A stretch of DNA of 64,000 nt. Source: a virus. The translations under genes and the position numbers were made by a program. The stretch's first letter is position 1, and every line of letters starts with the position of its first letter. The notes under the pieces are model-generated. The model was not told the origin of the DNA and made no database searches. It was given only the letters and a program-made list of their open reading frames with translations. The DNA lies in IMG/VR virus record IMGVR_UViG_3300020061_000004, positions 32,001 through 96,000 of that record, one strand, 5' to 3'. Positions 6,001-52,004 of the stretch are shown here, piece by piece.

Positions 6001-9000
6001 GACATTCCTGAAAGATTATCTAATATTTCTCCAGTTTCAGCATCTCTAAATACTGTTCCTTGTGGTGTATTACTAAACTGTACTCCTACACTTCCTAGAG
6101 CTTCATCAGCACTGGTGAATACTTTATCTTCATTAGATTCCTGATTGAAATTAGAAGTAGCCTTAGCATCTCTTATTTCTTGAGGAGACACCATTCCTAA
6201 TGGATTTCCTTGGTCATCTGTATCTACTTGTGTAAGACCACCAAAGATTCCCTTACTAGGAAGAGTAATAGGAGAAGGAGCTATCATTTCCTGCACTGGT
6301 ATACTAGGAGCAGGCATTTGAAATACTCCACTAGTAAGAGGTACTACAGAAGATATCTCAGGGTTATATACAATATTAATACCCTTTTGCTTTTCTACTG
6401 AGGTGATGTTTCCTTTGCCGTCATAAGCAATCTGAAATGGAAGAATTCCAAGTCTCTTTGGTTTTACACCAAATTCATTCTGGAAAAGGTTAGAATATGC
6501 ACTAAGTTGATTAGTATGATTCTGTCTCTTAGTCATCTTACCATTGTAAGAATCATCATACTTACCAAAATCCTTAGCTGTCTTTATATCATAAATACTA
6601 TAATTACCATCCTTATCTACCGATAGAATATCTACTTCACCAGCTATTTTACTTACTGGATCAAATAATACTATATTATTACTAATAAACTTCTCACCTC
6701 TATCTTCAATAGTTTTCTTAATTTCAGTGAGTGCTTTTATGATAGAAGTATGAGCTTCATCAGAAATACCAGCAGGTTTAGTAGCAGTTTTACCAGAAAA
6801 GAAATCTCTTACAATTCCATCTACTGTACTACCAGCAACTCTTGCATTTTCGTATAGAGAAGAGTCACCATCAAAATCATTAGGAATAACATTTGTTACT
6901 CTTCTATAGTTCTCTCCTCTAATTATATAAAACTGCTGATCTGCTGTTCTTCCTTGTACTTCTGTCTGACTAGCTATAACAGCAGCCATAATATCTTGAG
7001 AAGTCTGAAGATTTGCACCACTACTTACAGCATTCTGATTAGCAGGATTATTTCTTTCAGTACCTCCAGCTGCCTTATAGGCACTAGATATCTCTTTATA
7101 GTTAGGAGTGATACGAAGAGTACCATTCTTAAATACATTAGTAGTTGTTGCACTACTTAAAGCATTACCCGCAGCATCAGCATTAGTTTCAGAATCTTTT
7201 GCAATATTTTCACGGAACTGACTAGCAGAGAAATTAACTTTAAGTGCAGCAAATGCTGTAGCTTTATCAATTTGTTCCTGAGTCATTCCTTTCTTAACAG
7301 TACCTACTTTAACTGCTTCCTTATTGAAGAGATCAATCATCTCTCCTAAGTTCTTAATAGTAGCTACTCTTGTAGGAGCAATATATAAGGTATATCCTGC
7401 TTTAGTGTCCTTATCGTATATTTCCATACGAATTGCACCAATAGGGCTTACAGAAAGATTAAAGTTCTTTTTACCATCTGGATCAGATATAAACAGTTGA
7501 TTATCAATACCTTCATTAAAAGTATCATTATATGCTTTTGCTTCAGCATTAGGATATTTATAATAAACAACTTGATCACCAATTAATAACTGTCCATCTG
7601 CTAATTCCTTAGTAGATTCTGCAAAGTTAGTTTCTCCTGAAAGTTGTGCTCTATCTTTAAGAGAGTTAAACAATGCACTTTCAGCTTGTTCTCCTAACTG
7701 TCCAGGAGTAAGAGCTACATAATGTAAAGCTCCATCTGGTGTTTGAGTAACCCCAACATATCTTGTTCCAAGAGCATGTATTCTAGTAACGTCTCCAGCA
7801 ATTTTAGCTTTTAATTCTTTAGAATCAGCATTGTTATCATAAAAAGCAGGACTATAGATAAACTCCATAATATCAGACTTCACATATCCACCAATATCAT
7901 TATTATATACACGAGGTATAGAGATAATTACTTGTGACTGAACATCCTGTCCATTAGAACCTTTAAATACATGAGTAGTATTCTCTAATTCACTATATAA
8001 AGGTCTTTCTCCACCCGGTGGGATCAGATCAAGTTCCCCATATGTAAGTTTTACATCTACAAGTTTTTCAAGCTGTTCTTCTGATAGAGTAATAGCTTGA
8101 TTATTATTGTTCTTAAACTGTATAGCAAAATAGTTCTTCAGAGCAACCATAGCATTATACTGTTCCAAATCAGCAGCATATTGTGCAGCAGGTCTGGAAG
8201 TAAAATTAGCGTATTGTTGAGCAGTAAGTTTATCTAATGTAACTAATTGATTATTAACATTAAATAATAGTCTATCAGGAGTAGCAAGTTTTGCCACTTC
8301 ATCTCCAGTATGTAAGATAGACATATCTATAGGAGAAAGAGAAGAATATACTCCAGGATAACCTTTTAATTGTGTATATGTATTATTAGCTTTTTGATCA
8401 TTATAGGCTTGTTGACGTTCAGGAGAAAGAGGCTGTATTCTGATAGTCATATCAGCTTTAAACTCAGCTGATGTTTCATACTGTATAGCTTCTTGGAAAG
8501 GAACTTTTAAATCAGCAGGAACAAGAGCTTTATTAAAATAATCTTCTGTACGTAAAGCTTCTCTACCAGCTCCAGCACCAGCAGGTTGAGGCTGAGGAGG
8601 ACTTGGTGGTACAATAGGTTTAGAAGCCTTCTGGGAAGCAGCATTTGCAGCAGTGTTAAGAGTTACAGCCTGTGCTCTAATAGCAGCTACATTACTATTA
8701 TGTATATAGTAGTTCTTACCATCTGAGCTTTTAACTTGTGTATACTCTGAAAGGTTGACATTAGGATTTGTCATCTTAAGATCATCAACTGTAGATAGTT
8801 CATCTACATTATCAAGATCATCAGAAGCAGCTTTATCCTTTCCATCAATAACATTTAATAGAGCATTATAATATGTTCTTTTCTTCTCATCATCTAATAC
8901 TTGTGTAGACTCAGTTAATTCTCCTTGCCCTTGTTGTTGTGATGCAGCAAGACCAGTTCCTGTAGATAAACCATTAGCTTGAGCAGCCTGCTGAGCAACT

Positions 9001-31869: not shown

Positions 31870-32435
31870 TAGTTACAACATTTTTCGAGTTTCTTAATTA
31901 ATCGATCTGTCAACTTAGATGCCAATGCATAAAACTCAGTAGCTTTCTTTTCATTCTGATCTGCAATAAGATGACATCCTTCTACAAGCATGTGTATCTC
32001 AGCAAGATCATTCATTATTGTTAAGTCCTCTTTTCTTGAACAATCTGAAGCTCCTATCTTTTCATAGATAAAAGTAATTCGTTGTTCTAAGATATTAGTA
32101 CGACAAAAGCTCTTAAGTTTATAATTGAGATTGTATGGACAGATTTTATACTTTAGTCGATATACTCCATCAGGAAGATCAATAAGACAATCAGCATTCA
32201 ATAAGTCTGTAAGTCCTAAAGTATTGGAATTGAAGGTATTAACCTGATTTGCAACAATATTAACTAAGAAATACTTATTGTATCCCGGCATTAATACTTC
32301 AAGTAAGGGTCTATCAGGTTGTCCTATATATACAGAGCTATCTATGAAAACAAGAGTCTTAGGATTTCCCGTAGAAATTATTTCGAAATCTATAATATTT
32401 TCTCTAAATCCCTTCATAAATAAAAAAAGGAGCAA
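31869..32435 (-). CDS. Putative tail hub protein
   Basis: LPDGVYRLKY segment and gene position; true start may be the downstream MKGF. Confidence 0.5.
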   Translation of the reverse strand: MLLFLFMKGFRENIIDFEIISTGNPKTLVFIDSSVYIGQPDRPLLEVLMPGYNKYFLVNIVANQVNTFNSNTLGLTDLLNADCLIDLPDGVYRLKYKICPYNLNYKLKSFCRTNILEQRITFIYEKIGASDCSRKEDLTIMNDLAEIHMLVEGCHLIADQNEKKATEFYALASKLTDRLIKKLEKCCN

Positions 32436-41872: not shown

Positions 41873-43945
41873 TTACCTGGATTGTTTATTATGCTTGAAG
41901 GTGAATGTACTCTGTACCTTTCCAAATCCTTGTCCTATCCTTACAAAGGGTGAAGCAAGCATTGGATCATGTACCTTCTTAGGCATTAGAGGATCAAAGG
42001 GTTGTTCAGCTATATTACTAACAGGATAGTATTTATCCAGATGCTTAGCAAATGCTAAAGCATGCCTGAAGGCCACTATACGGTCATAGTTACCATCCTT
42101 TGGATCATACTTGATAATCTCCATTAGAAGTACAGGGTCCAGAATTCGGGTTATACCAAGCTTGTAGATGGGTTCTCTTGTAACAGGATGTGTTCCTATC
42201 TGTATCTGTTCCTTACAATATTCTATCATTAAGGACATACAGTAGTTAATATTAGCTACTGTTGGTGATAAGCCATATACTTTACCACCTTGGTTAGCTC
42301 TAGTCTTAGGATTTATTTCTCTTGCAATATTAAATCCCTGTCCAAGCATATGTCCTTTATTCTTACGCTCAAAATACTGGATGAATGTACCTGCTGCATT
42401 TTCTGGAAAGCATGTAGCATTATAATAATCCATTAACATCTCAACATCTTCATGCCAAGAATCCATTCTCTCAGGACGAGATGCCAAAGATGCCACCACC
42501 ATATTCTGATAGGTTTCACCAGATACATCTGTCATTCTCTTATAGATGAAGAGTGTCCCTAGAGAGTCAGACCAATCTGATATATCATTATTATACGGGT
42601 CGGCTCCAGCTACATAAAGCCCCATAGGAGCATTTGTAATAGGTTCTTCCCATATTACTATAGGGCAATCTGTGCCTAAGTTTCCTTTTGTTGGAAACTC
42701 TGAGATTGGTAGATCAGTAGGATCAGCATTTTTCTGAATTACCCTACCATTAGAATCTCTATATAGACGTACATAACGTCCCTTAATTTGATTAGTTTGT
42801 AAGTATTCCAGATGCTGTCTAGCTGCTTCCAAAGGGAACGGATTACTACTACCTGATAGAAAGCATTCCTCTGGTGTCAGAGGATGATACATTACAGCCT
42901 TTAAATACTCTTGTTTATCTGGGTCTTTAGACTTGATGAGTCTTTCTTCTTCTATCTTTAAGCGAGCTTTCTCTTTATCTGATACCTTAATAGGAATTGT
43001 CTTAGCTTCTAATCCAATTCCTGTAAATCCTTTTGATAAGAGATAGTCATATAGATTGGAATCAGTCTTACAATCCATTCGGTAAAGACCAGACATGAAT
43101 AAGCCAGTCTTCTTTCCTGTCTCTTCATTTACTACTTCTTGGAAGTTATTAGCTGTGGGATGTTCAAATACACGTTTAGCATCATTACCTTTCTCAAAAC
43201 TACCACCAGTACCCACTAGGATTGGAACACAACGCCAGCCGTATGGTGATAGGAACGCTGGTTTATGTGCTTCAAATACTGGTGAAAATAGATATTTACC
43301 AATTTCATCATATACTGCTGCCTTTGCTGTTGTACCAGCCGCGGCTTCTGTATTTGTACCTTCTTCTGCATTACGAATCATTATATAACTCCACACATGG
43401 TCTTCATTATTCTTGTCTTTAAAACCAAGACGTAATGTTGGCTTCCTCCAGTCTTTATCTAGTTTAGGGATAGCCAATCCTTGCCACATATGTTTCCATC
43501 CAAAATCAATCTTCTCTGTAAGAAGCTTCATGTCTGCTCCATTACCCGCTACAAGTACACTCTGTGAATTCTCATATAATATAGCTGTCATACCAATATG
43601 AGAAGCTTCCCATTCTGATTTACCTCCCTGACGTAATCCCACTTCTATATATCCCTTCTGAGCTACACGAGCTTTCTCAAAATACTCAGCACGTTCCCAT
43701 TCATTATCTCTAAGATCAGGTAGGGATGGTGTACGTACAATGTTTCCCCACTTATCCTTCTTATCCACAATAATATGCCAGTGATTCAAATGCCCATATA
43801 AAATTCCAGGAATATGAACACCACCAATAGTAATACCCCCCATGCACTTTTCAATTTCCCACTCTACAAGAGAAGTGAAATCATCAGTACCGGGAGGTGG
43901 CAAAGTTTTTATATTTCTAAAAAACTCAGTTGTTTTAATCTGCAT
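41873..43945 (-). CDS. terL: Terminase large subunit
   Basis: Walker A-like RQGGKS, Walker B VYDEIG, VGTGG coupling motif, nuclease AGADPY and NYDR. Confidence 0.92.
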   Translation of the reverse strand: MQIKTTEFFRNIKTLPPPGTDDFTSLVEWEIEKCMGGITIGGVHIPGILYGHLNHWHIIVDKKDKWGNIVRTPSLPDLRDNEWERAEYFEKARVAQKGYIEVGLRQGGKSEWEASHIGMTAILYENSQSVLVAGNGADMKLLTEKIDFGWKHMWQGLAIPKLDKDWRKPTLRLGFKDKNNEDHVWSYIMIRNAEEGTNTEAAAGTTAKAAVYDEIGKYLFSPVFEAHKPAFLSPYGWRCVPILVGTGGSFEKGNDAKRVFEHPTANNFQEVVNEETGKKTGLFMSGLYRMDCKTDSNLYDYLLSKGFTGIGLEAKTIPIKVSDKEKARLKIEEERLIKSKDPDKQEYLKAVMYHPLTPEECFLSGSSNPFPLEAARQHLEYLQTNQIKGRYVRLYRDSNGRVIQKNADPTDLPISEFPTKGNLGTDCPIVIWEEPITNAPMGLYVAGADPYNNDISDWSDSLGTLFIYKRMTDVSGETYQNMVVASLASRPERMDSWHEDVEMLMDYYNATCFPENAAGTFIQYFERKNKGHMLGQGFNIAREINPKTRANQGGKVYGLSPTVANINYCMSLMIEYCKEQIQIGTHPVTREPIYKLGITRILDPVLLMEIIKYDPKDGNYDRIVAFRHALAFAKHLDKYYPVSNIAEQPFDPLMPKKVHDPMLASPFVRIGQGFGKVQSTFTFKHNKQSR

Positions 43946-44258
43946 CTCTCTGCATTCTATGAGGAATATTAGTATTCCCTTTTGCTTCAGCCTTAGTTGC
44001 TTCTTTTTCTCTTAATTTATCTATCACTTCCAAAAGAAGAAGATAGTTCTTCATGGTATCTTGTACAGATTTAATCTGTTGTTCAATAGAAGCCACTACT
44101 GTACGCATCATACCACCATTCTTCGTCTCCTTATAGTCCATCCTATCTGTTAGTTGATCTATAGGATTGATGTCAATGTAATTACGCCATTTCTTTAATT
44201 GCTCTTCAGCCCAATCTAAATCTGATGTTATGTAACTATTAACTTTCTTTGCTGCCAT
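43935..44258 (-). CDS. Small helical protein upstream of TerL (possible small terminase)
   Basis: 107 aa, overlaps the TerL start; function inferred from position only. Confidence 0.45.
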   Translation of the reverse strand: MAAKKVNSYITSDLDWAEEQLKKWRNYIDINPIDQLTDRMDYKETKNGGMMRTVVASIEQQIKSVQDTMKNYLLLLEVIDKLREKEATKAEAKGNTNIPHRMQRDAD

Positions 44259-44724
44259 CTATTTGGTTTTGAGCACTAGGTTGGATTTGAACCAACGGTT
44301 GTACGGTTTTGCAGACCGGTGCCTTGGACCCCTCAGCCACTAGTGCAGGTTTCTGTGCGAAATCTAAATACTTTGATATTAAAATCTTATTCTTAAGAAC
44401 GTAATCAAATATCTTCTCCACTATATATCCTGTTATATATGCTCTTGTCTCACCTAGTTTCTCTACTTCAGTCTTCTCGATGATGTAGTCTACAATGTGG
44501 GACACTTCATGTACAATGCAGTTGGGAGTGAGTCCATGTAACTGATAGAAGATGAAGTATTTATGATCAGGTGTATCTAGTGATAAACCATAATAGCCTC
44601 CTTCTGCAAGAGGCTCCATACCATACTTCTTAAGATATCTTGGTACTATCTTTTCAATCTCTTCATCTATAATAATAGTGAGGTTGAACTCAAAGATAGG
44701 TATCTTTATAGTTGTCTTATACAT
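44239..44724 (-). CDS. HExxH (zincin-like) protein whose 3' end contains tRNA-Cys
   Basis: IVHEVSHIVD...ETRAY motif; frame stays open through the tRNA. Confidence 0.65.
   Translation of the reverse strand: MYKTTIKIPIFEFNLTIIIDEEIEKIVPRYLKKYGMEPLAEGGYYGLSLDTPDHKYFIFYQLHGLTPNCIVHEVSHIVDYIIEKTEVEKLGETRAYITGYIVEKIFDYVLKNKILISKYLDFAQKPALVAEGSKAPVCKTVQPLVQIQPSAQNQIDGSKES
44272..44346 (-). tRNA. trnC: tRNA-Cys (GCA)
   Basis: GCACTAG/CTAGTGC acceptor, loop CTGCAAA, T arm GTTGG TTCAAAT CCAAC, U73. Confidence 0.9.
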
Positions 44725-44734
44725 AGAAGATATT

Positions 44735-44809
44735 TGGAAGCGGGAGCGGGATTTGAACCCGCGACCTTTGAGTTATGAGCCCAACGAGCTACCTCTGCTC
44801 TACCCCGCT
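44735..44809 (-). tRNA. trnM: tRNA-Met (CAT)
   Basis: AGCGGGG/TCCCGCT acceptor, loop CTCATAA, encoded CCA. Confidence 0.9.
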
Positions 44810-44815
44810 ATATTA

Positions 44816-45043
44816 TTAATCTTCTATTTGTGTTGCCTTATCAGCTAGATCAGTCTCAAGTTCATCACGATAGTTTTCAAACTTCTTGAGAAGTTCTTCA
44901 TCACTCCAGTTATAATTACCTGTTTGGGGGCGCATCACATGCACAATATGCTGTGAGATACTATACTGGGGAAACAACTCTACTATCTCTACGAAATGAT
45001 GAAAAATCTGTTGCTTGATCTGAGTTTTTTGTTTATTGCTCAT
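44816..45043 (-). CDS. Hypothetical protein
   Basis: 75 aa, overlapping neighbour in the operon. Confidence 0.6.
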   Translation of the reverse strand: MSNKQKTQIKQQIFHHFVEIVELFPQYSISQHIVHVMRPQTGNYNWSDEELLKKFENYRDELETDLADKATQIED

Positions 45044-45461
45044 TGGTTTTTGTTTTGTATGCTGTCCATTTAAGTTCCATATTGATGTTGTTATTCTGAT
45101 TAAAGGCTAACAACTCTTTATCCTTGCAAGTACAATTTGATAAGTTATCAAAATTGCAACAATCAATTCCACAATTTGCTTCTAGTGAAGCTGTCTTTCT
45201 AGTGATTGTACATCCACACATAATACAATGTTCATCAAATCTATCTGTCTTATATCCAGTAGATACTGCATTTGAACTATTGAATGGACACGTTGCACAT
45301 ATAAATCTTCTTCTTGCTATTTCTGCTTGTTCATCTTCAGGAAGGATATCATATTGCAATTTCACTTGATTCACTATCCCCTCCACTATCAAGTCTGCAT
45401 TCTGTACTACTGTCGGCAGTAGTTTTACATATTCTATTAGTCCTTTTAGCATAAGCTTCAT
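45033..45461 (-). CDS. Cys-rich putative Zn-binding protein
   Basis: RRFICATCPF...HCIMCGC...NCGIDCC. Confidence 0.65.
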   Translation of the reverse strand: MKLMLKGLIEYVKLLPTVVQNADLIVEGIVNQVKLQYDILPEDEQAEIARRRFICATCPFNSSNAVSTGYKTDRFDEHCIMCGCTITRKTASLEANCGIDCCNFDNLSNCTCKDKELLAFNQNNNINMELKWTAYKTKTNEQ

Positions 45462-45792
45462 AATACTGTGTTGCTAATGTATTCCTCTGTATTAAGGCTT
45501 TTCTAAGTTTGCCATAGTTTACTTCGAGGAGCAGGTCTTTTGTTGATTCTTTATACCTGATAGACTTCTTTATATTCCTAATCTTATTAATTGTGGACTT
45601 TATAAAGTAGTCTATCTTACGTTTACTTGTTGTTATTGTTCCTAAGTACTTGATACTCACCGATGTAGACTCAAGGCCACTTAGTTTTTTCCTTACTTCT
45701 TTCCAATAAAAATCATTCACACTATCAACAATCTTCTCTTCTATTCCCATCTCACGGGATACTATCTTGCTGATTACTTGAATAGTTTTCAT
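45349..45792 (-). CDS. IHF/HU-like DNA-binding protein
   Basis: 147 aa. ISKIVSREMGI..VSIKYLGTI HU-like pattern. Confidence 0.6.
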   Translation of the reverse strand: MKTIQVISKIVSREMGIEEKIVDSVNDFYWKEVRKKLSGLESTSVSIKYLGTITTSKRKIDYFIKSTINKIRNIKKSIRYKESTKDLLLEVNYGKLRKALIQRNTLATQYYEAYAKRTNRICKTTADSSTECRLDSGGDSESSEIAI

Positions 45793-46133
45793 TAGCTATT
45801 ATCTATTTTAATCAGTACACCAATCACAGGATTAACAGGAAAGTCTAAGTCTGCATTAAGTGTGTAGTCTTTAGAATCTACAGGACGCACTAACATTCCA
45901 AACTTCTTAAGTTTACTCATTGTATTCTTCAGACTATCCTCTGTTTTGAGAATATTTGAAGAAAGAATAAGGTCTTTAGTTTTTCTATTAATCCTATATA
46001 CCATGAAATAAGCAAGGACTGTGAGTTCAGTATCAGAAAGTCGTATATTCTTGAGTAAACAAAAGATACCAATTACTTTCTTTGCCTGTTCCACCTTGCT
46101 ATTGGTTTTAAGTTTGATTTTTACAAGCTGCAT
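45792..46133 (-). CDS. Winged-HTH (RepL-like) protein
   Basis: LSDTELTVL...LKNTMSKLKKFGML; start moved to MQLVK (46133), downstream of the promoter. Confidence 0.5.
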   Translation of the reverse strand: MQLVKIKLKTNSKVEQAKKVIGIFCLLKNIRLSDTELTVLAYFMVYRINRKTKDLILSSNILKTEDSLKNTMSKLKKFGMLVRPVDSKDYTLNADLDFPVNPVIGVLIKIDNS

Positions 46134-46149
46134 TTCCTTAATTTCTACA

Positions 46150-46181
46150 CAAAGATAAGTAATTGATTTCAATTAACCAAA
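46150..46181 (-). promoter_or_regulatory. Bacteroidota-type promoter (HTH-IHF-terminase operon)
   Basis: TTTG-N20-TATCTTTG. Confidence 0.8.
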
Positions 46182-46190
46182 TCTTTTTCA

Positions 46191-46676
46191 CTAATTATGA
46201 TTATTTGCTGTAATTAAGTCTCTATATCTCTCATTTACAATCTTAGCCTGAGCTGATGAAGGTATTCTTCCTGATTCTAATAGGGAAAGGATACTTCTGA
46301 AGTAAGGAGCAGGGGATATTTGTAATATCTTCTTACAACGCTTCTTATATTCCTCTATAACTCCTTGTATTCTAGTGGTATCCTTTGATTTATTCTTCTT
46401 TACTCTTCTGGTTGATGAAGGTTTCTTCATGAAAGAAGCTATTGTTCTTTTCTCATGTGCTTTTGAATGACAATCTGCACAAAGAGTAACTAAAGCTTTC
46501 AAAGGATATTCCCAAGGACTCTTATCTTTGATGTAATAGAGATGATGAACATGCAACATACAATTTGTAGCCTTACAATTCCTGCATGTATACTTATCAC
46601 GGTTTAAAACCTGAACCCTAACTACATCAACCCAGCGTGTATCAAGTAATAATATTTTATATTCTTCTTTTGTCAT
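46191..46676 (-). CDS. HNH endonuclease
   Basis: RDKYTCRNC..LHVHH..LVTLCADCH; start moved to MTKEEY because the ORF-track start is at the terminator. Confidence 0.85.
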   Translation of the reverse strand: MTKEEYKILLLDTRWVDVVRVQVLNRDKYTCRNCKATNCMLHVHHLYYIKDKSPWEYPLKALVTLCADCHSKAHEKRTIASFMKKPSSTRRVKKNKSKDTTRIQGVIEEYKKRCKKILQISPAPYFRSILSLLESGRIPSSAQAKIVNERYRDLITANNHN

Positions 46677-46758
46677 AATATTCTCTGTTGAGTATGCAAT
46701 ACTACGGAAAATTATTGACATTATGCCACTTTTTTCAATATTTATTTTTATATAATAT

Positions 46759-46783
46759 AAAAACCCCTCACTTGGAGGGGCTT
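46759..46783 (-). terminator. Intrinsic terminator
   Basis: AAGCCCCTC CAAGT GAGGGGTTTTT. Confidence 0.8.
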
Positions 46784-46804
46784 GCAACAAAAGAAGGTAG
46801 CAGA

Positions 46805-46951
46805 TTAGACTTTTTTAGCATCTGCTTCGACAGTAGAAGCTACTTCTTCAACCTTTTCAATAATCGGCTCGATCTTTTCCTTGTTATTACGGTAAATTAA
46901 TATACCTGCAATGAACAAACCAAGAGATACAATAGCAACGAGTGGAACCAT
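46805..46951 (-). CDS. Small single-TM membrane protein (48 aa, not in ORF track)
   Basis: MVPLVAIVSLGLFIAGILIYRNNKEKIEPIIEKVEEVASTVEADAKKV; own promoter and terminator. Confidence 0.75.
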   Translation of the reverse strand: MVPLVAIVSLGLFIAGILIYRNNKEKIEPIIEKVEEVASTVEADAKKV

Positions 46952-46969
46952 ATGTTTCAAATTTAGATA

Positions 46970-47001
46970 CAAAGATAATAACTTCTTAGGAAATTACCAA
47001 A
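46970..47001 (-). promoter_or_regulatory. Bacteroidota-type promoter
   Basis: TTTG-N20-TATCTTTG upstream of the 48-aa membrane ORF. Confidence 0.8.
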
Positions 47002-47075
47002 TGGCACGGGAGGCTTGATTCGAACAAACATCAAAGGTTTTGGAGACCTCTATTCTACCATTGAACTACTCCCGT
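47002..47075 (-). tRNA. trnW: tRNA-Trp (CCA)
   Basis: ACGGGAG/CTCCCGT, loop CTCCAAA, encoded CCA. Confidence 0.9.
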
Positions 47076-47076
47076 A

Positions 47077-47151
47077 TGGGGTGAAAGGACGGTAATGATC
47101 CGTCTTCTATGCCTTCACAGGGCACCGCATCACCTTAATGCTTCAGACACC
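47077..47151 (-). tRNA. trnH: tRNA-His (GTG), atypical acceptor stem
   Basis: GTGCC CTGTGAA GGCAT arm, G-1:C73, CCA; three pyrimidine mismatches in the acceptor stem. Confidence 0.75.
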
Positions 47152-47161
47152 ATGTATTATG

Positions 47162-47232
47162 TACCCGATCATGGGAACGATCCACATTCTCCTGCTTCAA
47201 AGGCAGGCATAATACCTTTATACTACTCGGGT
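47162..47232 (-). tRNA. trnQ: tRNA-Gln (TTG)
   Basis: CCTGC CTTTGAA GCAGG arm; ACCCGA/TCGGGT acceptor. Confidence 0.8.
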
Positions 47233-47237
47233 ATAAG

Positions 47238-47308
47238 TTGGGGAAGATTGAATCGAACAACCACCAAAGGTGTCAGAGACCTTTGTACTACCATTATACG
47301 ATTCCCCA
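47238..47308 (-). tRNA. trnQ: tRNA-Gln (CTG)
   Basis: TGGGGAA/TTCCCCA; loop CTCTGAC. Confidence 0.88.
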
Positions 47309-47354
47309 AAATGAAGGTTCCTTACTCAATGAAGTATGCCTACAACCCAAAATG

Positions 47355-47427
47355 TGGTACAGGTTAGTTATGATCTAACTCCTCGGGATTTTCAGTCCCG
47401 CGCTTCTACCAAGTTAGCTTCTGTACC
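47355..47427 (-). tRNA. trnF: tRNA-Phe (GAA)
   Basis: GGTACAG/CTGTACC; CGGGA CTGAAAA TCCCG. Confidence 0.88.
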
Positions 47428-47432
47428 ATAAG

Positions 47433-47506
47433 AGCCCTAGCCGGAACTCGAAGCCGGTCTGTTCCGCATTACAAGTGCGGCGCTGCACCATATCAGCATC
47501 TCGGGC
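47433..47506 (-). tRNA. trnT: tRNA-Thr (TGT)
   Basis: CCGCA CTTGTAA TGCGG; GCCC/GGGC acceptor. Confidence 0.85.
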
Positions 47507-47555
47507 AGTTGACATTTGATTTTCACATAAAACAAAGTTTCCAAACAAAACATCG

Positions 47556-47656
47556 CTAATGGGGTACGATTCGAACGTACATGCAGAGGTTATTAATTCC
47601 CTATATCTGCACCACCGAGAAAAGGAGGCGAGTCTGCCAAGTTCCAACACCCATTA
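47556..47656 (-). ncRNA. 101-nt tRNA-like RNA with very long variable arm, isotype undetermined
   Basis: TAATGGG/CCCATTA acceptor, GTACG TTCGAAT CGTAC T arm, TGCAGA...TCTGCA long arm, non-canonical loop TTTTCTC. Confidence 0.7.
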
Positions 47657-47661
47657 ATCTG

Positions 47662-47733
47662 CGGGGAAGGTATGGATCGAACATACGACCTGAGAGTTAA
47701 CAGCTCCCTGCTCTACCGCTGAGCTACTTCCCC
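47662..47733 (-). tRNA. trnN: tRNA-Asn (GTT)
   Basis: GGGGAAG/CTTCCCC; loop CTGTTAA. Confidence 0.92.
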
Positions 47734-47790
47734 AAAATAGGGTGTAAGGGTTCTTCCTTACACAGGGTGCGCTTACCCCACTTCCTATTG

Positions 47791-47866
47791 CCGGCAATAC
47801 GGGATTTGAACCCGTGGTCTTCCCGTAGACAGCGGGACAGGGACAACCAGACTCCCCTAAATGCCG
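47791..47866 (-). tRNA. trnD: tRNA-Asp (GTC)
   Basis: TCCCG CTGTCTA CGGGA; G73. Confidence 0.85.
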
Positions 47867-47874
47867 AATAAAAG

Positions 47875-47945
47875 TCTAGCTTGTCTGAATCGAACAGCTC
47901 TTCATGCTTCCAAGGCACGGGTGCTACCATCACACCCCAAACTAG
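47875..47945 (-). tRNA. trnP: tRNA-Pro (TGG)
   Basis: CTAGTTT/AAGCTAG; loop CTTGGAA. Confidence 0.85.
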
Positions 47946-47977
47946 AAATAAAAAACCCTCCTTTAAGGGGAGGGCTT
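47946..47977 (-). terminator. Attenuator terminator in front of tRNA block 1
   Basis: AAGCCCTCC CCTTAAA GGAGGG TTTTTTATTT, between the promoter and the first tRNA. Confidence 0.85.
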
Positions 47978-48001
47978 GTATGAACACGCTTGAAAATTTA
48001 G

Positions 48002-48082
48002 TTATCGTGATATAATATAGCCTCTCCCAACGATTGTATCGGGTTGAAAATTAAAGGTATTATTATGCCAATTCTGAATCAT
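48002..48082 (-). CDS. Leader peptide 1 (26 aa) MIQNWHNNTFNFQPDTIVGRGYIISR
   Basis: ATG 4 nt after the -7 box; residues 3-16 are all amino acids of the downstream tRNAs. Confidence 0.85.
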   Translation of the reverse strand: MIQNWHNNTFNFQPDTIVGRGYIISR

Positions 48083-48086
48083 ACAG

Positions 48087-48118
48087 CAAAGATAAGAAGA
48101 ATATTTGATATTACCAAA
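48087..48118 (-). promoter_or_regulatory. Bacteroidota-type promoter of tRNA operon 1
   Basis: TTTG-N20-TATCTTTG. Confidence 0.85.
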
Positions 48119-48137
48119 TTTCTTATAAAAATAAATG

Positions 48138-48220
48138 TGGGAGCTGATGGAGTTGAACCACCCGAGTCCTAAGACAGCAGATTTACAGTCTGCCCCGCTA
48201 CCCCTACGGTATAAACTCCC
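48138..48220 (-). tRNA. trnY: tRNA-Tyr (GTA)
   Basis: GCAGA CTGTAAA TCTGC; long variable arm. Confidence 0.92.
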
Positions 48221-48306
48221 AAATAGCTACCCTCGGTATTTCCGAGACCAGCTTACAATATAGGGTCACTCACTTAAGAGGCTCACTAGTTTCCTAGTTA
48301 CTTTAG

Positions 48307-48393
48307 AGGAAGGTGTGGGATTTGAACCCACGGAACTTTTACATCCTCCGGTTTTCAAGACCGGTGCAATCAGCCAGACTCTGCCAACCTTCC
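48307..48393 (-). tRNA. trnS: tRNA-Ser (TGA)
   Basis: GGAAGGT/ACCTTCC; loop CTTGAAA; long variable arm. Confidence 0.92.
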
Positions 48394-48467
48394 TAAAGCT
48401 CACCCCGTAGGTGAGCAGCGCAATTAAGGCTTTGCGATGCCATTACAGCCACCCTTTGGGCAGTGTG

Positions 48468-48552
48468 AGGAGAGTAGAAGATTCGAACTTCTGGGGCTTT
48501 AACACCCAACACTTTAGCAAAGTGTTACGATAAACCTCTCTGACAACTCTCC
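48468..48552 (-). tRNA. trnS: tRNA-Ser (GCT)
   Basis: GGAGAGT/ACTCTCC; loop TTGCTAA. Confidence 0.9.
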
Positions 48553-48557
48553 TTATG

Positions 48558-48637
48558 TATCCCTAACATGATTTGAACATGCACCCCGAAGGAGCAGATT
48601 TTAAGTCTGCCGCGTCTACCAGTTTCGCCATAGAGAT
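48558..48637 (-). tRNA. trnL: tRNA-Leu (TAA)
   Basis: GCAGA CTTAAAA TCTGC; TGGTAGAC D-loop. Confidence 0.9.
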
Positions 48638-48643
48638 AAGTTG

Positions 48644-48728
48644 TAGGTATAGTAAGAGTCGAACTTACACGCCCATTACAGGCATCAGTTTCTAAGACTG
48701 ACGTGTCTACCAATTCCACCATATACCC
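48644..48728 (-). tRNA. trnL: tRNA-Leu (TAG)
   Basis: TCAGT CTTAGAA ACTGA; long variable arm. Confidence 0.92.
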
Positions 48729-48730
48729 AT

Positions 48731-48766
48731 AAAATAAAAACCCCCGCTATCCGAATTAGCAGGGGA
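48731..48766 (-). terminator. Attenuator terminator in front of tRNA block 2
   Basis: CCCCTGCTA ATTCGGA TAGCGGGGG TTTTTATTTT. Confidence 0.85.
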
Positions 48767-48808
48767 GTGACGATATTGTCTTTTACGAACGCTTCTTTAT
48801 CACATACT

Positions 48809-48871
48809 TTACCCCTTACTATCGAGTGATAGATAACTTAAGGAGAGCAAATATGAGTTTAAATTCTTCAT
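48809..48871 (-). CDS. Leader peptide 2 (20 aa) MKNLNSYLLSLSYLSLDSKG
   Basis: AATTAAA-ATG start; Leu/Ser/Tyr run matches the downstream Leu, Leu, Ser, Ser, Tyr tRNAs. An in-frame upstream ATG also exists at 48937. Confidence 0.85.
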   Translation of the reverse strand: MKNLNSYLLSLSYLSLDSKG

Positions 48872-48945
48872 TTTAATTAGGGGTCTCAGGAAAGATATAG
48901 AAACAATCGTGTGTACAATAAATCTATATCTATCCATCAACACAA

Positions 48946-48977
48946 CAAAGGTAATACAAATAATTGATATTACCAAA
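48946..48977 (-). promoter_or_regulatory. Bacteroidota-type promoter of tRNA operon 2
   Basis: TTTG-N20-TACCTTTG. Confidence 0.85.
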
Positions 48978-48985
48978 TTTAAGTG

Positions 48986-49058
48986 TAGTAATGATGGGAG
49001 TTGAACCCACTACCCCGGAGGTATCAGCTCCGTACTCTAACCGTTGAGCTACACTACT
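48986..49058 (-). tRNA. trnI: tRNA-Ile (GAT)
   Basis: CGGAG CTGATAC CTCCG. Confidence 0.9.
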
Positions 49059-49060
49059 AG

Positions 49061-49132
49061 TGGACTGAGATGGAATTGAACCATCGACTTGCACATTATG
49101 AGTGTGCTGCTCTACCCCTGAGCTATCAGTCC
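49061..49132 (-). tRNA. tRNA with CAT anticodon, probably Ile2 (lysidine) type
   Basis: GGACTGA/TCAGTCC, A73, loop CTCATAA; leader 3 contains ATA and no internal ATG. Confidence 0.85.
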
Positions 49133-49139
49133 ATAAAAG

Positions 49140-49211
49140 TACTCTGTGACGGTTACGATCCGTCTTCCACGCTTTGAAGGAGCGTTATCCTAGCCACTAG
49201 ACGAACAGAGC
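49140..49211 (-). tRNA. trnE: tRNA-Glu (TTC)
   Basis: GCTCTGTTCGTCTAG Glu-like body; ACGCT CCTTCAA AGCGT (C33). Confidence 0.85.
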
Positions 49212-49218
49212 ATATATG

Positions 49219-49290
49219 AGCACCAGTGGGTAATCGAAACCCAATCCGCGCATTGGAAGTGCGCTATAATAGCCGTTATACGACTGATGC
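49219..49290 (-). tRNA. trnG: tRNA-Gly (TCC)
   Basis: GCGCA CTTCCAA TGCGC; U73. Confidence 0.88.
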
Positions 49291-49292
49291 AT

Positions 49293-49367
49293 TGGTAGAG
49301 ATACCAAGAATCAAACTTGGGTCTAGGGATTAGAAGGCCCTCGTTCTATTCATTGAACTACATCTCT
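49293..49367 (-). tRNA. trnR: tRNA-Arg (TCT)
   Basis: Loop CTTCTAA; encoded CCA. Confidence 0.88.
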
Positions 49368-49368
49368 A

Positions 49369-49444
49369 TGGAGGACACAGAAAGAGTCAAACTTTCGTTC
49401 CCTGCTTCGTAGGCAGGAGTTCTATTCAGCTGAACTATGCGTCC
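49369..49444 (-). tRNA. trnR: tRNA-Arg (ACG)
   Basis: CCTGC CTACGAA GCAGG; encoded CCA. Confidence 0.88.
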
Positions 49445-49515
49445 TAATACTGGGCCAGAGTATACAGGTTACTGTCCCTCTATGAATTTCACATAGTTAC
49501 CCCAGTAGAATACTG

Positions 49516-49588
49516 TCTCCCCGTTCGGAATCGAACCGAACCCCACGGTTTAAAAGACCGTTGCCTACAACCAGTTTGCTACAAGGAG
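49516..49588 (-). tRNA. trnK: tRNA-Lys (TTT)
   Basis: ACGGT CTTTTAA ACCGT; T arm TTCGG TTCGATT CCGAA. Confidence 0.88.
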
Positions 49589-49593
49589 TTTGT

Positions 49594-49633
49594 AAAAACA
49601 AAAACCCGAAGCTGCTAGTTGCGGCTCCGGGCT
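49594..49633 (-). terminator. Attenuator terminator in front of tRNA block 3
   Basis: CCCGGAGCCGC AACTA GCAGCTTCGGG TTTTTGTTTTT. Confidence 0.85.
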
Positions 49634-49655
49634 CTGTTAAAAGAAATTGTTAGTA

Positions 49656-49757
49656 TTATCCTAAATCAATATCTTGTAGACATATAGCTCCGGAGCCAGG
49701 TTTTCTTCCTGCCTCGCGAATAATTTCTATGCCACCGATATTGATAACTAAATTCAT
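49656..49757 (-). CDS. Leader peptide 3 (33 aa) MNLVINIGGIEIIREAGRKPGSGAICLQDIDLG
   Basis: ATG 4 nt after the -7 box; Ile/Gly/Glu/Arg/Lys run matches the downstream tRNAs. Confidence 0.85.
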   Translation of the reverse strand: MNLVINIGGIEIIREAGRKPGSGAICLQDIDLG

Positions 49758-49761
49758 AATG

Positions 49762-49793
49762 CAAAGATATGTTAAATATTTGAAACTACCAAA
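49762..49793 (-). promoter_or_regulatory. Bacteroidota-type promoter of tRNA operon 3
   Basis: TTTG-N20-TATCTTTG. Confidence 0.85.
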
Positions 49794-50026
49794 TCTTGTT
49801 TTAAAAAGGCTATTACTTCTTTAAGTTCTTGTTCAGGAGTAGATGGCCTTATCATAAATTCTCTTTCCCGATTTGTTACCATATATCCAAAAACATTTGA
49901 GGATGCTAGGAAACCCTTTGAAATATTAAGAAATGATGGAAGGTGTGTTCCAGACATAAATCCATAATCTCCTCTACTATGAGAGAGTCCTGTCTCCTTA
50001 TCTATATAAGCTAATACAGCATTCAT
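49772..50026 (-). CDS. Hypothetical protein
   Basis: 84 aa; coupled stop/start. Confidence 0.6.
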   Translation of the reverse strand: MNAVLAYIDKETGLSHSRGDYGFMSGTHLPSFLNISKGFLASSNVFGYMVTNREREFMIRPSTPEQELKEVIAFLKQDLVVSNI

Positions 50027-50310
50027 TATACAAAGATTAAACTACACAATGCTTTTGATATCCATACAATCTCACCTTTAACTGGTTCTTGATCAATCTC
50101 AATAGATATATGAGTGCCATCAATCCCTGCAAACTCTCCATTATCTAAGGGTGTCATATTCCAATGGCTTATCTCACGTTTATCATTGAGGATGGTATAA
50201 TAGCTACCATCCTCTTTTATTAATCTTATGCCGGGACAGAGATATTTCTTTGGAATATATCTATCCCTCCAATCTCCCTGTATCATCAGAGTCACTCGTG
50301 TGGGTCTCAT
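50026..50310 (-). CDS. Hypothetical protein
   Basis: 94 aa in the operon. Confidence 0.6.
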   Translation of the reverse strand: MRPTRVTLMIQGDWRDRYIPKKYLCPGIRLIKEDGSYYTILNDKREISHWNMTPLDNGEFAGIDGTHISIEIDQEPVKGEIVWISKALCSLIFV

Positions 50311-50334
50311 AACTAAAAAAAATTCGTTCGTACG

Positions 50335-50736
50335 TTAACTCAAATTATCACTATCCATACCAAGCCCGAAATCATCAATCGAATCTGGTTTGATGATAGT
50401 GTCATTAGACGCGCCTTCTCCAGATTTTTCTGTTATGAATCCGTGTATACTATACCCTGTAGCGGCTGTATAGATACGCTGAAACTCACTATAAGGCAAT
50501 GCCACTACAAAACTATCCCCGTCCTTAAAACGCACCGTTGTCGATTTTTTATCCTGGCTACGATTGAATCGAGAGATATCATTGATATCAAACGTCATAG
50601 GAGCATAGTCATAAAAGAACTCTGGTTGGAAGTTGTTCTGCTCTTCACCACTCAGAAGCTTCTTTAGTTGAAGTTCCTGATCGTCCTCTTTCTTAACACG
50701 CATCTCTGTCCATCTCACCTGCATTTCTACTATCAT
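50335..50736 (-). CDS. Hypothetical protein
   Basis: 133 aa in the operon. Confidence 0.65.
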   Translation of the reverse strand: MIVEMQVRWTEMRVKKEDDQELQLKKLLSGEEQNNFQPEFFYDYAPMTFDINDISRFNRSQDKKSTTVRFKDGDSFVVALPYSEFQRIYTAATGYSIHGFITEKSGEGASNDTIIKPDSIDDFGLGMDSDNLS

Positions 50737-51119: not shown

Positions 51120-51270
51120 GTTTATATTTTTCGTTTAAATTATCTACAAACTCCTTTAATATCTTCTTAGGTATTTTAGGCCCATATTTTATATATAGTG
51201 CCCCCATACCTTCTAGCCATTCTGCTGTTAGTTTGGCTTCTTCAATACTTAGCCAAGATGTTTCATCCAT
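51109..51270 (-). CDS. Hypothetical protein (53 aa, not in ORF track)
   Basis: MDETSWLSIEEAKLTAEWLEG...; overlaps both neighbours. Confidence 0.55.
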   Translation of the reverse strand: MDETSWLSIEEAKLTAEWLEGMGALYIKYGPKIPKKILKEFVDNLNEKYKHEN

Positions 51271-52004
51271 TTTACTTCTTTTATAATTTCCCTCCAGCGT
51301 GTAGCTAAGAGGTTTGAATAAATACTATCATCAAGTCCATAGTTCCCAAGAGACCATCCATCATTACACTCTACCAATACTGTCTCTCCTGTAGATAGAA
51401 CACCAACATCCAGACTATATCCAGAAGGAGCTTCTGTATAAGCTGCTATCATCTTCATCACCTTCTCCTTATTGGGAGCTATAAAAGGATCACCAAGATA
51501 GTGCTTCATTCCCTTTAATACTCCATTGATGATATAGCATCTATATTCAGAAACGAAGTCTACCACTTCACTATAGAATATCTTTGTATCCTGAGGAATC
51601 TTACTGAAGTAAATAAGAGCATCTGTTGGTGTTTTAACTACTCCTGCTATAAACTCCTTAGCTTTTCCATCTGGCTTTACAAATAGAGGCCATTTACGCT
51701 GCTCACTATACCAAGTAATATCCTCCATTTTACCATTTCCTACTTCTCTTTTAAGGAACTCTTCTTTCCATAATTGGTAGGGAACATTAATAGCCTGCTT
51801 TGGTGGTAGTCCTATCTTCTCGAAATACTTATTGGTGGTTTCTATATAAGCTACAAGAATTACCCAAGGAGCTACAGGTACTTCATCAATATCCTCAAAG
51901 AATACTATATTAGCTTGCTTCCCTTTAAACCCCATATAGGCAGATACCATCCAGTCTGCGATTGGGAAGTTATTAAGACTCTCTATGTATATTTTATAAT
52001 CCAT
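51249..52004 (-). CDS. ATP-grasp domain protein (DUF4343 / R2K-like)
   Basis: LFVKP, SEVVDFVSEYRCY, YSLDVGV and LVECNDGWSLGNYG. Confidence 0.8.
   Translation of the reverse strand: MDYKIYIESLNNFPIADWMVSAYMGFKGKQANIVFFEDIDEVPVAPWVILVAYIETTNKYFEKIGLPPKQAINVPYQLWKEEFLKREVGNGKMEDITWYSEQRKWPLFVKPDGKAKEFIAGVVKTPTDALIYFSKIPQDTKIFYSEVVDFVSEYRCYIINGVLKGMKHYLGDPFIAPNKEKVMKMIAAYTEAPSGYSLDVGVLSTGETVLVECNDGWSLGNYGLDDSIYSNLLATRWREIIKEVKWMKHLG

Follow-up and report, generated by a model that had tools for sequence, protein, structure and literature searches.

A putative leader-peptide transcription attenuator ahead of nine tRNA genes in a crAss-related phage

Introduction

Why phages carry tRNA genes is a long-standing question, to which codon-usage matching, substitution for host tRNAs that are degraded and evasion of anticodon nucleases have been proposed as answers. 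A 64,000-nucleotide stretch of viral DNA, positions 32,001 to 96,000 of the 123,280 bp IMG/VR record IMGVR_UViG_3300020061_000004 (the whole stretch is called the window below), raises a narrower question: what is the role of a short open reading frame (ORF) and a terminator placed between a promoter and a block of nine tRNA genes? The span studied, 47946-48118, reaches from the -33 TTTG of the promoter to the last base ahead of tRNA-Pro, and from its sequence and modelled folding we propose that it is probably a ribosome-mediated (leader-peptide) transcription attenuator with the nine phage tRNA genes as its output. An earlier note, made from the letters of the window, had read the span as an attenuator sensing the eight amino acids of the block; our computations on folding, on homologous leaders and on the tracking of leader content with tRNA content support this reading.

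Results

The leader ORF and its codons

Codons 3-16 of the ORF at 48082-48002 are the same 14 codons listed in the earlier note; they use only the set {P,D,N,T,F,Q,H,W} and include each member at least once. In six frames over the 64-kb window no run of this set is longer, the next longest being 10 codons, while the expected number of such runs is about 0.002 for the whole window and about 3e-6 for the 191-nt spacer that holds it (six-frame set frequency 0.28), and the match between codons and block is thus far beyond chance. The claim that the run covers every amino acid of the block also holds, a tRNA gene being found for each of the eight once tRNA-His(gtg) is included. This gene, at 47150-47080, is undetected by ARAGORN at its default settings and was added as the 21st tRNA of the array by the Rfam tRNA model, with ARAGORN at 88% thresholds naming it His(gtg); its acceptor stem pairs poorly, with three mismatches by eye. 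The locus has a short leader ORF whose putative regulatory codons are cognate to what the operon supplies. Standard pairing or wobble lets the block tRNAs read 12 of the 14. The two other blocks of the array are headed alike, by SYLLSLSYLSL ahead of Leu, Leu, Ser, Ser and Tyr tRNAs and by IGGIEIIRE.GRK ahead of Lys, Arg, Arg, Gly, Glu, Met/Ile2 and Ile tRNAs.

The ATG of the leader ORF lies 4 nt 3' of the promoter end, and the leader mRNA is, to judge from this sequence, possibly leaderless. The promoter motif TTTG-N20-TANNTTTG (TTTG-N20-TAnnTTTG), which we take to be the Bacteroidota sigma-A promoter consensus, has eight copies in the window where 0.31 would be expected, every one on the minus strand, and three of the eight each head one of the three tRNA blocks.

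Terminator, antiterminator and RNA folding

Between the ORF and the tRNA genes stands an intrinsic terminator, whose hairpin has a G+C-rich stem with a free energy of -12.9 kcal/mol and which ends 2-8 nt ahead of tRNA-Pro. A motif search found no promoter motif between terminator and tRNA-Pro, where there is no room for one; the next copy is at 47001-46970. The earlier note had suggested that 48028-48019 pairs, with one bulge, with the terminator arm at 47976-47968, and this GGGAGAGGCT/AGCCCTCCC pairing is recovered by RNAduplex at -12.5 kcal/mol (z -2.8, p 0.01 against 500 shuffles). The minimum free energy (MFE) structure of the full leader transcript, at -26.1 kcal/mol, combines a hairpin of regions 1 and 2 (Table 1), predicted to sequester the antiterminator arm, with the terminator formed by regions 3 and 4. 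When the transcript is cut ahead of the terminator 3' arm, GGGAG.AGGCU pairs with AGCCCUCCC, giving a predicted antiterminator of regions 2 and 3 at -19.6 to -20.4 kcal/mol that shares the terminator 5' arm and is mutually exclusive with the terminator.

Ribosome stalls were simulated by blocking a 28-nt footprint at successive positions and folding the transcript. With the A site on codons 3-15 the transcript ahead of the fourth arm folds as the antiterminator, at -14 to -18 kcal/mol, whereas with the A site on codons 17-25 the antiterminator cannot form; the run of matching codons thus ends where stalls would cease to be productive. In these models RNA folding gives the classic four-region attenuator design.

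The proposed mechanism would run as follows. Transcription would start from the promoter at 48118-48087 and a ribosome would begin on the ATG at or near the 5' end, moving in step with the polymerase. If codons 3-16 (Gln, Asn, Trp, His, Thr, Phe, Pro and Asp) are decoded fast, the ribosome would advance onto codons 17-26 and cover GGGAGAGGCT while the terminator is being made, so that the hairpin at 47977-47953 would form and transcription would stop ahead of tRNA-Pro. If any of these codons is slow, for scarcity of its charged tRNA, the ribosome would stall upstream of the arm, GGGAGAGGCT would pair with AGCCCTCCC, and the antiterminator would exclude the terminator and let the polymerase read into the nine tRNA genes. 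With no ribosome on the ORF, region 1 would sequester region 2 and termination would be the default. The net effect would be negative feedback in which tRNAs are supplied on demand, and that demand could come from a host tRNA pool ill-fitted to the phage codons or from loss of host tRNAs during infection. We infer that the ORF is translated, that ribosome and polymerase are coupled and that the start is leaderless, and likewise the response and what triggers it physiologically; the sequence parts, the alternative pairings, their conservation and their co-variation with tRNA content are observed features of these leaders.

Homologous leaders in relatives

A search with the large terminase (TerL) retrieved five viral contigs and 80 metagenome loci, making 86 loci with G000, and the relatives bearing leaders are 31-73% identical in TerL. 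The nearest by this measure are L131/L133 (73%) and L132 (64%), which have homologous leader ORFs in the same place, MINNWHNTFTFTPNQPDRARVYCAN in L131/L133 and MINNWHNTFNNFTPDQQDLDEGTLCQNK in L132. L131/L133 and L132 keep the ORF, the terminator and the promoter-to-ATG spacing of the window, with tails and terminators that differ from the window's. The antiterminator is nonetheless retained with different letters: in L131, AGGGTGTAT in the 3' part of the ORF pairs with ATACACCCT of the terminator 5' arm (p 0.002), and in L132, GAGGGAA pairs with TTCCCTC of its terminator (p 0.024). The bases flanking the arms differ while pairing is kept, being GGCT/AGCC in the window, GTGTAT/ATACAC in L131 and GAA/TTC in L132. 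Per-sequence duplex tests against shuffles were used here instead of column covariation, the arms being shifted by indels in the MAFFT alignment of the three leaders. The hairpin of regions 1 and 2 is also present in the MFE structures of L131, L132 and G001, a 126-kb phage outside the TerL retrieval.

Other routes to relatives gave less. A blastn search of the array against 50,697 phage records for close DNA relatives among cultured phages returned only tRNA-level matches covering no more than 7% of the query; a probe made from the 251-aa gene at 51249-52004 gave 15 pattern matches in viral contigs and no relatives; and a degenerate pattern of the third-block leader found in viral contigs only three that were already known. 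The exact 17-nt promoter string is unspecific in viral contigs, with at least 118 loci, G001 (L005) and L110 among them.

Leader content follows the tRNA block

The regrouping of tRNA genes between lineages gives force to a comparison of leader content with block content. At least three tRNAs on the terminase strand are present in 17 of the 86 loci, and 15 were analysed, L133 and L134 being dropped as duplicates of L131 and L135. Leaders were collected with a composition-blind finder that takes an ATG-initiated ORF of 12-45 codons ending at most 60 nt before a terminator, which itself ends at most 30 nt before a tRNA; it returned 22 ORFs in 13 of the 15 loci and no leader in L142 and L143. Two of these ORFs, L147:6322 and L149:311, are evidently spurious and were counted in the block-shuffle test and dropped from the antiterminator, zone and codon-reading counts. 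Three leaders seen by eye were missed by the finder through its terminator rule (L131 blocks B and C, L132 block A) and enter none of the block-shuffle counts, and L132 block B, mis-delimited in the block-shuffle test, was corrected by hand for the zone and codon-reading counts. Examples are given in Table 2.

The mean fraction of leader residues matching the leader's own block is 0.556, against 0.357 +/- 0.033 when blocks are shuffled, and in 20,000 shuffles the observed value is never reached. Their own leader lacks just 11 of the 149 block amino-acid types; 18 of the 22 ORFs have codons for all the amino acids of their block, and the fullest coverage in relatives is 12 of 12. Across lineages with regrouped tRNA genes, leader content tracks the block in these sequences. 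The leaders also called for tRNA genes that default ARAGORN had missed and that it finds at 88% thresholds, namely His in the window and Asn, Ala, Trp and Asp elsewhere. Block-matching codons make up 235 of 321 (0.73) where a stall would leave the arm free and 69 of 198 (0.35) beyond, in 20 leaders.

These figures bear on the simplest alternative, in which a small peptide gene with no relation to the block, or a spurious ORF, stands ahead of a constitutively leaky terminator, and the likeness of peptide to block has no regulatory meaning. Short ORFs are indeed common in AT-rich spacers, but some 0.002 runs of this length are expected per window, no permutation reaches the observed leader-block match, the matching codons are concentrated upstream of the antiterminator arm, and the ORF is conserved at 64-73% TerL identity while tail and arms change together; we regard this explanation as highly improbable.

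The 3' part of the ORF is complementary to the terminator 5' arm at p <= 0.05 in 18 of the 20 leaders (500 shuffles each, median z -3.7). A second alternative is that the position of the ribosome on the ORF governs the processing or stability of the tRNA precursor, for instance nuclease access by tRNA-Pro, with the hairpin as a processing or stability element. The hairpin does end a few bases ahead of tRNA-Pro, and a protein-gene terminator in G001 likewise abuts a tRNA-Gly, tRNA-adjoining hairpins being common in these phages. Such a role would leave aside that the hairpin is built like an intrinsic terminator, G+C-rich stem and T run included, and that the conserved complementarity joins specifically the ORF 3' part to the terminator 5' arm, the signature of a terminator/antiterminator pair, and we hold it to be very unlikely.

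Table 2. Leader translations in relatives and the tRNAs encoded behind them (one-letter code)
Leader	tRNAs behind
QniHsYRPQQLLQ	P Q H R L Y
RNNWFNNAAAFTTTDCGkG..CWN (RNNWFNNAAAFTTTDCG)	A G D N W T R F C
KRNWFNIIFTMFATRDCGKVGI.CW	A D N W T R K I M F V G C
FQHTRFWFTQPT	P T F Q Q H R W
LQHYQPACLYLY	A Q H L P Y C
HPQPQH..P	P Q H

Tracking at the level of codons

Over all leaders, 244 of 307 in-set codons are readable by the block tRNAs through standard pairing or wobble. Arginine is the most telling case: with Arg(acg) in the block the sensing zone contains CGN codons, with Arg(tct) it contains AGR codons, and blocks that have both tRNAs are matched by one codon of each kind, a rule that is true in nine of nine leaders tested and in three more from cultured phages, these 12 leaders being partly homologous and not 12 independent events. 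That the Arg codon family follows the Arg anticodon favours sensing at the level of the tRNA over sensing at the level of the amino acid. For glutamine the correspondence is looser. The earlier note had remarked that both Gln codons match the two Gln isoacceptors, which is true of the window and is no rule across relatives, since the leaders of L147, L153, L203 and L209 use CAG with Gln(ttg) as the sole Gln tRNA of their blocks, and L201 has Gln(ctg) in its block yet a leader that uses only CAA. Proline is encoded by CCC in the sensing zone of most leaders (G000, L131, L147, L153, L201, L203, L204 and L209) despite the TGG anticodon of tRNA-Pro; CCC may be deliberately weakly read, sharpening the sensor.

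The same device might instead report host amino-acid supply through tRNA charging, so that starvation for any of the eight amino acids would raise output and tie the tRNA genes to host nutrition. Classic attenuators such as trp and his do sense charged tRNA, a stalled ribosome is blind to whether a tRNA is absent or uncharged, and the leader's ACC and CCC fall outside the standard reading of the tRNAs that the phage encodes. Against this, the tRNA genes that form the output cannot relieve starvation, leader content follows the block's tRNA genes even where lineages regroup them, and amino-acid-level sensing does not require the Arg codon family to follow the Arg anticodon. A nutritional signal therefore seems unlikely to us, though less so than the two alternatives considered above.

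With the attenuator reading kept, and sensing placed at the level of the tRNA, the leaders of crAss-related Bacteroidota phages probably amount to a codon-resolved tRNA homeostat: each mini-ORF would poll precisely those anticodons that follow it, resolving even the isoacceptor (Arg CGN/AGR), so that host decoding capacity would be measured codon by codon and only shortages topped up.

Cultured and distant carriers

Searching cultured phages with TerL (tblastn) gave phage Lbo-JY46 at 44.7% identity, Cellulophaga phages phi17:2 and phi4:1 at 31% and crAss-like phages at 24-32%, a result that places the clade as crAss-related. The recorded hosts of the cultured relatives are mostly Bacteroidota, the nearest, Lbo-JY46, being recorded on a cyanobacterium, Leptolyngbya. 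Lbo-JY46 carries three unannotated leaders, including MKITRQHTQFWFPT ahead of Pro, Thr, Phe, Gln, His, Arg(acg) and Trp. Phage phi17:2 has MKIQRLHLQELEQP ahead of Pro, Glu, Gln, His, Leu, Leu and Arg(acg), a second leader in the gp077 region ahead of Ala through Arg(tct), and a third, ..NYCTYNNSNWSFSY, ahead of Tyr, Ser, Ser, Asn, Trp and Phe. Outside the TerL retrieval, the leader of G001 is MTNITFTFTFFPCIFQDQPD, ahead of Pro, Asp, Phe and Gln.

Some features of these genomes deserve mention in their own right. Lbo-JY46 (L219, PP438436.1) has Leptolyngbya boryana as its recorded host, yet the promoters of its tRNA blocks are of the TTTG / TAnnTTTG form. In phi17:2 (L220, NC_021798.1), gp077 and gp078 are small genes annotated "hypothetical protein" in two spacers of the tRNA array, and both spacers hold a leader ORF matching the tRNAs behind. 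G001 (L120, L127) has a lone tRNA-Asn at 12713 preceded by MANNKKGSLTLNVQ and a terminator, and a lone tRNA-Gly at 65508 directly behind a protein-gene terminator with no room for a promoter. L110, a 274-kb phage with 26 tRNAs, was considered as a leaderless control and rejected: it has an ORF, a terminator and a complementary arm ahead of an array of 25 tRNAs. That ORF (reverse complement of about 8170-8417) has 57 codons and all 20 amino acids, and its end is complementary to the terminator 5' arm; with all 20 amino acids on both sides the match has no statistical weight, and L110 may represent a "whole-alphabet" version of the same device.

The tRNA array and its surroundings

ARAGORN at default settings finds 22 tRNA genes in the window, 20 of them in a single array at 49588-47002 that is made up of three blocks, the third being the one studied here (Table 1). 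The large terminase, portal and major head genes are on the minus strand, downstream of the array.

Table 1. Features of the leader and of the putatively gated tRNA block (coordinates in the window)
Feature	Coordinates	Strand	Detail or evidence
Bacteroidota-type promoter	48087-48118	-	TTTG (48118-48115), 20-nt spacer, TAtcTTTG (48094-48087)
Leader ORF, 26 codons + stop	48002-48082	-	translation MIQNWHNNTFNFQPDTIVGRGYIISR
Sensing codons 3-16, QNWHNNTFNFQPDT	48035-48076	-	14 consecutive codons, all 8 amino acids of the block
Region 1, 5' side of 1:2 hairpin, inside the sensing codons	48038-48070	-	MFE structure of full transcript
Region 2, contains antiterminator arm GGGAGAGGCT (48028-48019)	48008-48031	-	folding, duplex test, stall simulation
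Region 3, terminator 5' arm AGCCCTCCC, predicted partner of region 2 (antiterminator) or region 4	47968-47976	-	folding, duplex test
Intrinsic terminator, 9-bp hairpin 47977-47953 + T run (47952-47947)	47947-47977	-	terminator scan
Gated block, nine tRNA genes + one tRNA-like element	47002-47945	-	ARAGORN, Rfam
tRNA-Pro(tgg)	47945-47874	-	ARAGORN default
tRNA-Asp(gtc)	47866-47790	-	ARAGORN default
tRNA-Asn(gtt)	47733-47661	-	ARAGORN default
tRNA-like element	about 47656-47556	-	between tRNA-Asn and tRNA-Thr
tRNA-Thr(tgt)	47506-47432	-	ARAGORN default
tRNA-Phe(gaa)	47427-47354	-	ARAGORN default
tRNA-Gln(ctg)	47308-47237	-	ARAGORN default
tRNA-Gln(ttg)	47232-47161	-	ARAGORN default
tRNA-His(gtg)	47150-47080	-	Rfam tRNA 31.4 bits (cut-off 29); ARAGORN at 88% thresholds
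tRNA-Trp(cca)	47075-47002	-	ARAGORN default

The tRNA-like element, about 100 nt long, is conserved at the same place in L131 (6185-6300) and L132 (6187-6291). It has acceptor and T arms and a long variable arm resembling class II, its anticodon stem shows compensatory changes, and position 37 is a pyrimidine; its anticodon is TTC (Glu) in the window and GTC (Asp) in L131 and L132. No Glu codon is present in the third-block leader, and the element (47556-47656) has no Rfam match at E <= 1.

One base past tRNA-Trp begins a further copy of the promoter motif (46970-47001), which heads a 55-codon gene at 46972-46805 closed by a terminator at 46783-46761, all on the minus strand. Further on, tRNA-Cys (44346-44271, minus strand) lies within the 3' end of a 161-codon ORF on the same strand (44724-44239).

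Discussion

Several observations weigh against an attenuator with tRNA genes as its output. At the level of codons, four-way reading by U34 would be required for ACC and CCC among the 14 sensing codons and for 56 of the 307 in-set codons over all leaders, with a further seven unreadable; amino-acid starvation would also slow decoding, and extra tRNA would not help then. At the level of RNA, a ribosome on the stop codon (A site on codon 27) leaves most of the arm free in the footprint model, so that termination under fast translation would depend on timing and on the hairpin of regions 1 and 2 and not simply on where the stop codon lies, and terminator and antiterminator are close to equal at equilibrium (-12.9 versus -12.5 kcal/mol), so that the switch must be kinetic. 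Classic attenuators likewise choose kinetically. Among relatives, the antiterminator falls short of significance in two of the 20 leaders (L201 block B, p 0.24; L203 block A, p 0.20), the leader of G001 contains four Thr, one Asn, two Ile and one Cys codons with no such tRNA in its block and has an antiterminator at p 0.063, and the leaders compared are partly homologous, so that the p-values overstate their independence.

If the proposal is right, this would be the first leader-peptide attenuation controlling tRNA genes, and textbook attenuation would extend to a further class of output, RNA genes that serve translation, and become far broader. The supply of phage tRNAs would be driven by demand, a block being switched on only when its own codons are read slowly, and the phage would carry a built-in sensor of tRNA depletion, such as that caused by host anticodon nucleases or following host shut-off. 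The leaders are also useful for annotation, having predicted tRNA genes that the default finder missed, and the cultured carriers, Cellulophaga phage phi17:2 and phage Lbo-JY46, make experiments feasible.

Among known systems the enterobacterial attenuators share most of the architecture: a short ORF with regulatory codons, an intrinsic terminator, an antiterminator using the terminator 5' arm, and a hairpin of regions 1 and 2 that makes termination the default while a stalled ribosome selects read-through, as is predicted here. Classic leaders sense few amino acids, Ile, Val and Leu in ilvGMEDA, Thr and Ile in thr, and one each in trp, his, leu and pheA; against these one to three, the present leader has eight in 14 codons, and relatives have up to 12 of 12. 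The choice of regulatory codon here tracks the anticodons encoded downstream (CGN or AGR for Arg). The element is carried by a phage, has a Bacteroidota-type promoter and is possibly leaderless, and it has tRNA genes as its output where the enterobacterial leaders have biosynthetic enzymes, no biosynthesis gene being part of the gated block.

T-box riboswitches resemble the element in placing a terminator and an antiterminator under the control of the state of specific tRNAs. They bind uncharged tRNA directly, with no translation, and control synthetase, transport or biosynthesis genes, whereas an ORF is present here and no Rfam-detectable specifier loop and T-box sequence was found. Curated Rfam families, T-box and leader families included, gave no match in 47946-48136 at E <= 1, and cmscan of 43500-50500 at the same cut-off returned only tRNA-type matches and chance plastid or Tymo matches on tRNA genes.

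Leader-peptide control has been described for aminoacyl-tRNA synthetase genes, as in pheST and in a His leader ahead of hisS paralogues in bacilli (PMC2965389), and these cases likewise put part of the translation apparatus, and not amino-acid synthesis, under attenuation. They differ in controlling a protein gene for one amino acid, and the terms "tRNA gene" and "tRNA operon" are absent from that article. In full-text literature searches, with subscription journals and supplementary files outside their scope, no report of tRNA genes under leader-peptide control came up.

The nearest published case is the trn operon of Anabaena sp. PCC 7120, a silent long tRNA array induced under translational stress and controlled at its promoter by direct repeats and the repressor TrcR (PMC8421152, PMC10272220); "attenuat", "leader" and "terminator" do not occur in PMC8421152. 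The two systems are alike in keeping an extra tRNA array off and switching it on when translation is impaired, as the phage leader would do. They part in the nature of the response, which is a global stress response in Anabaena, whereas in the phage the codons match block by block and each block stands behind the architecture of an ORF and a terminator.

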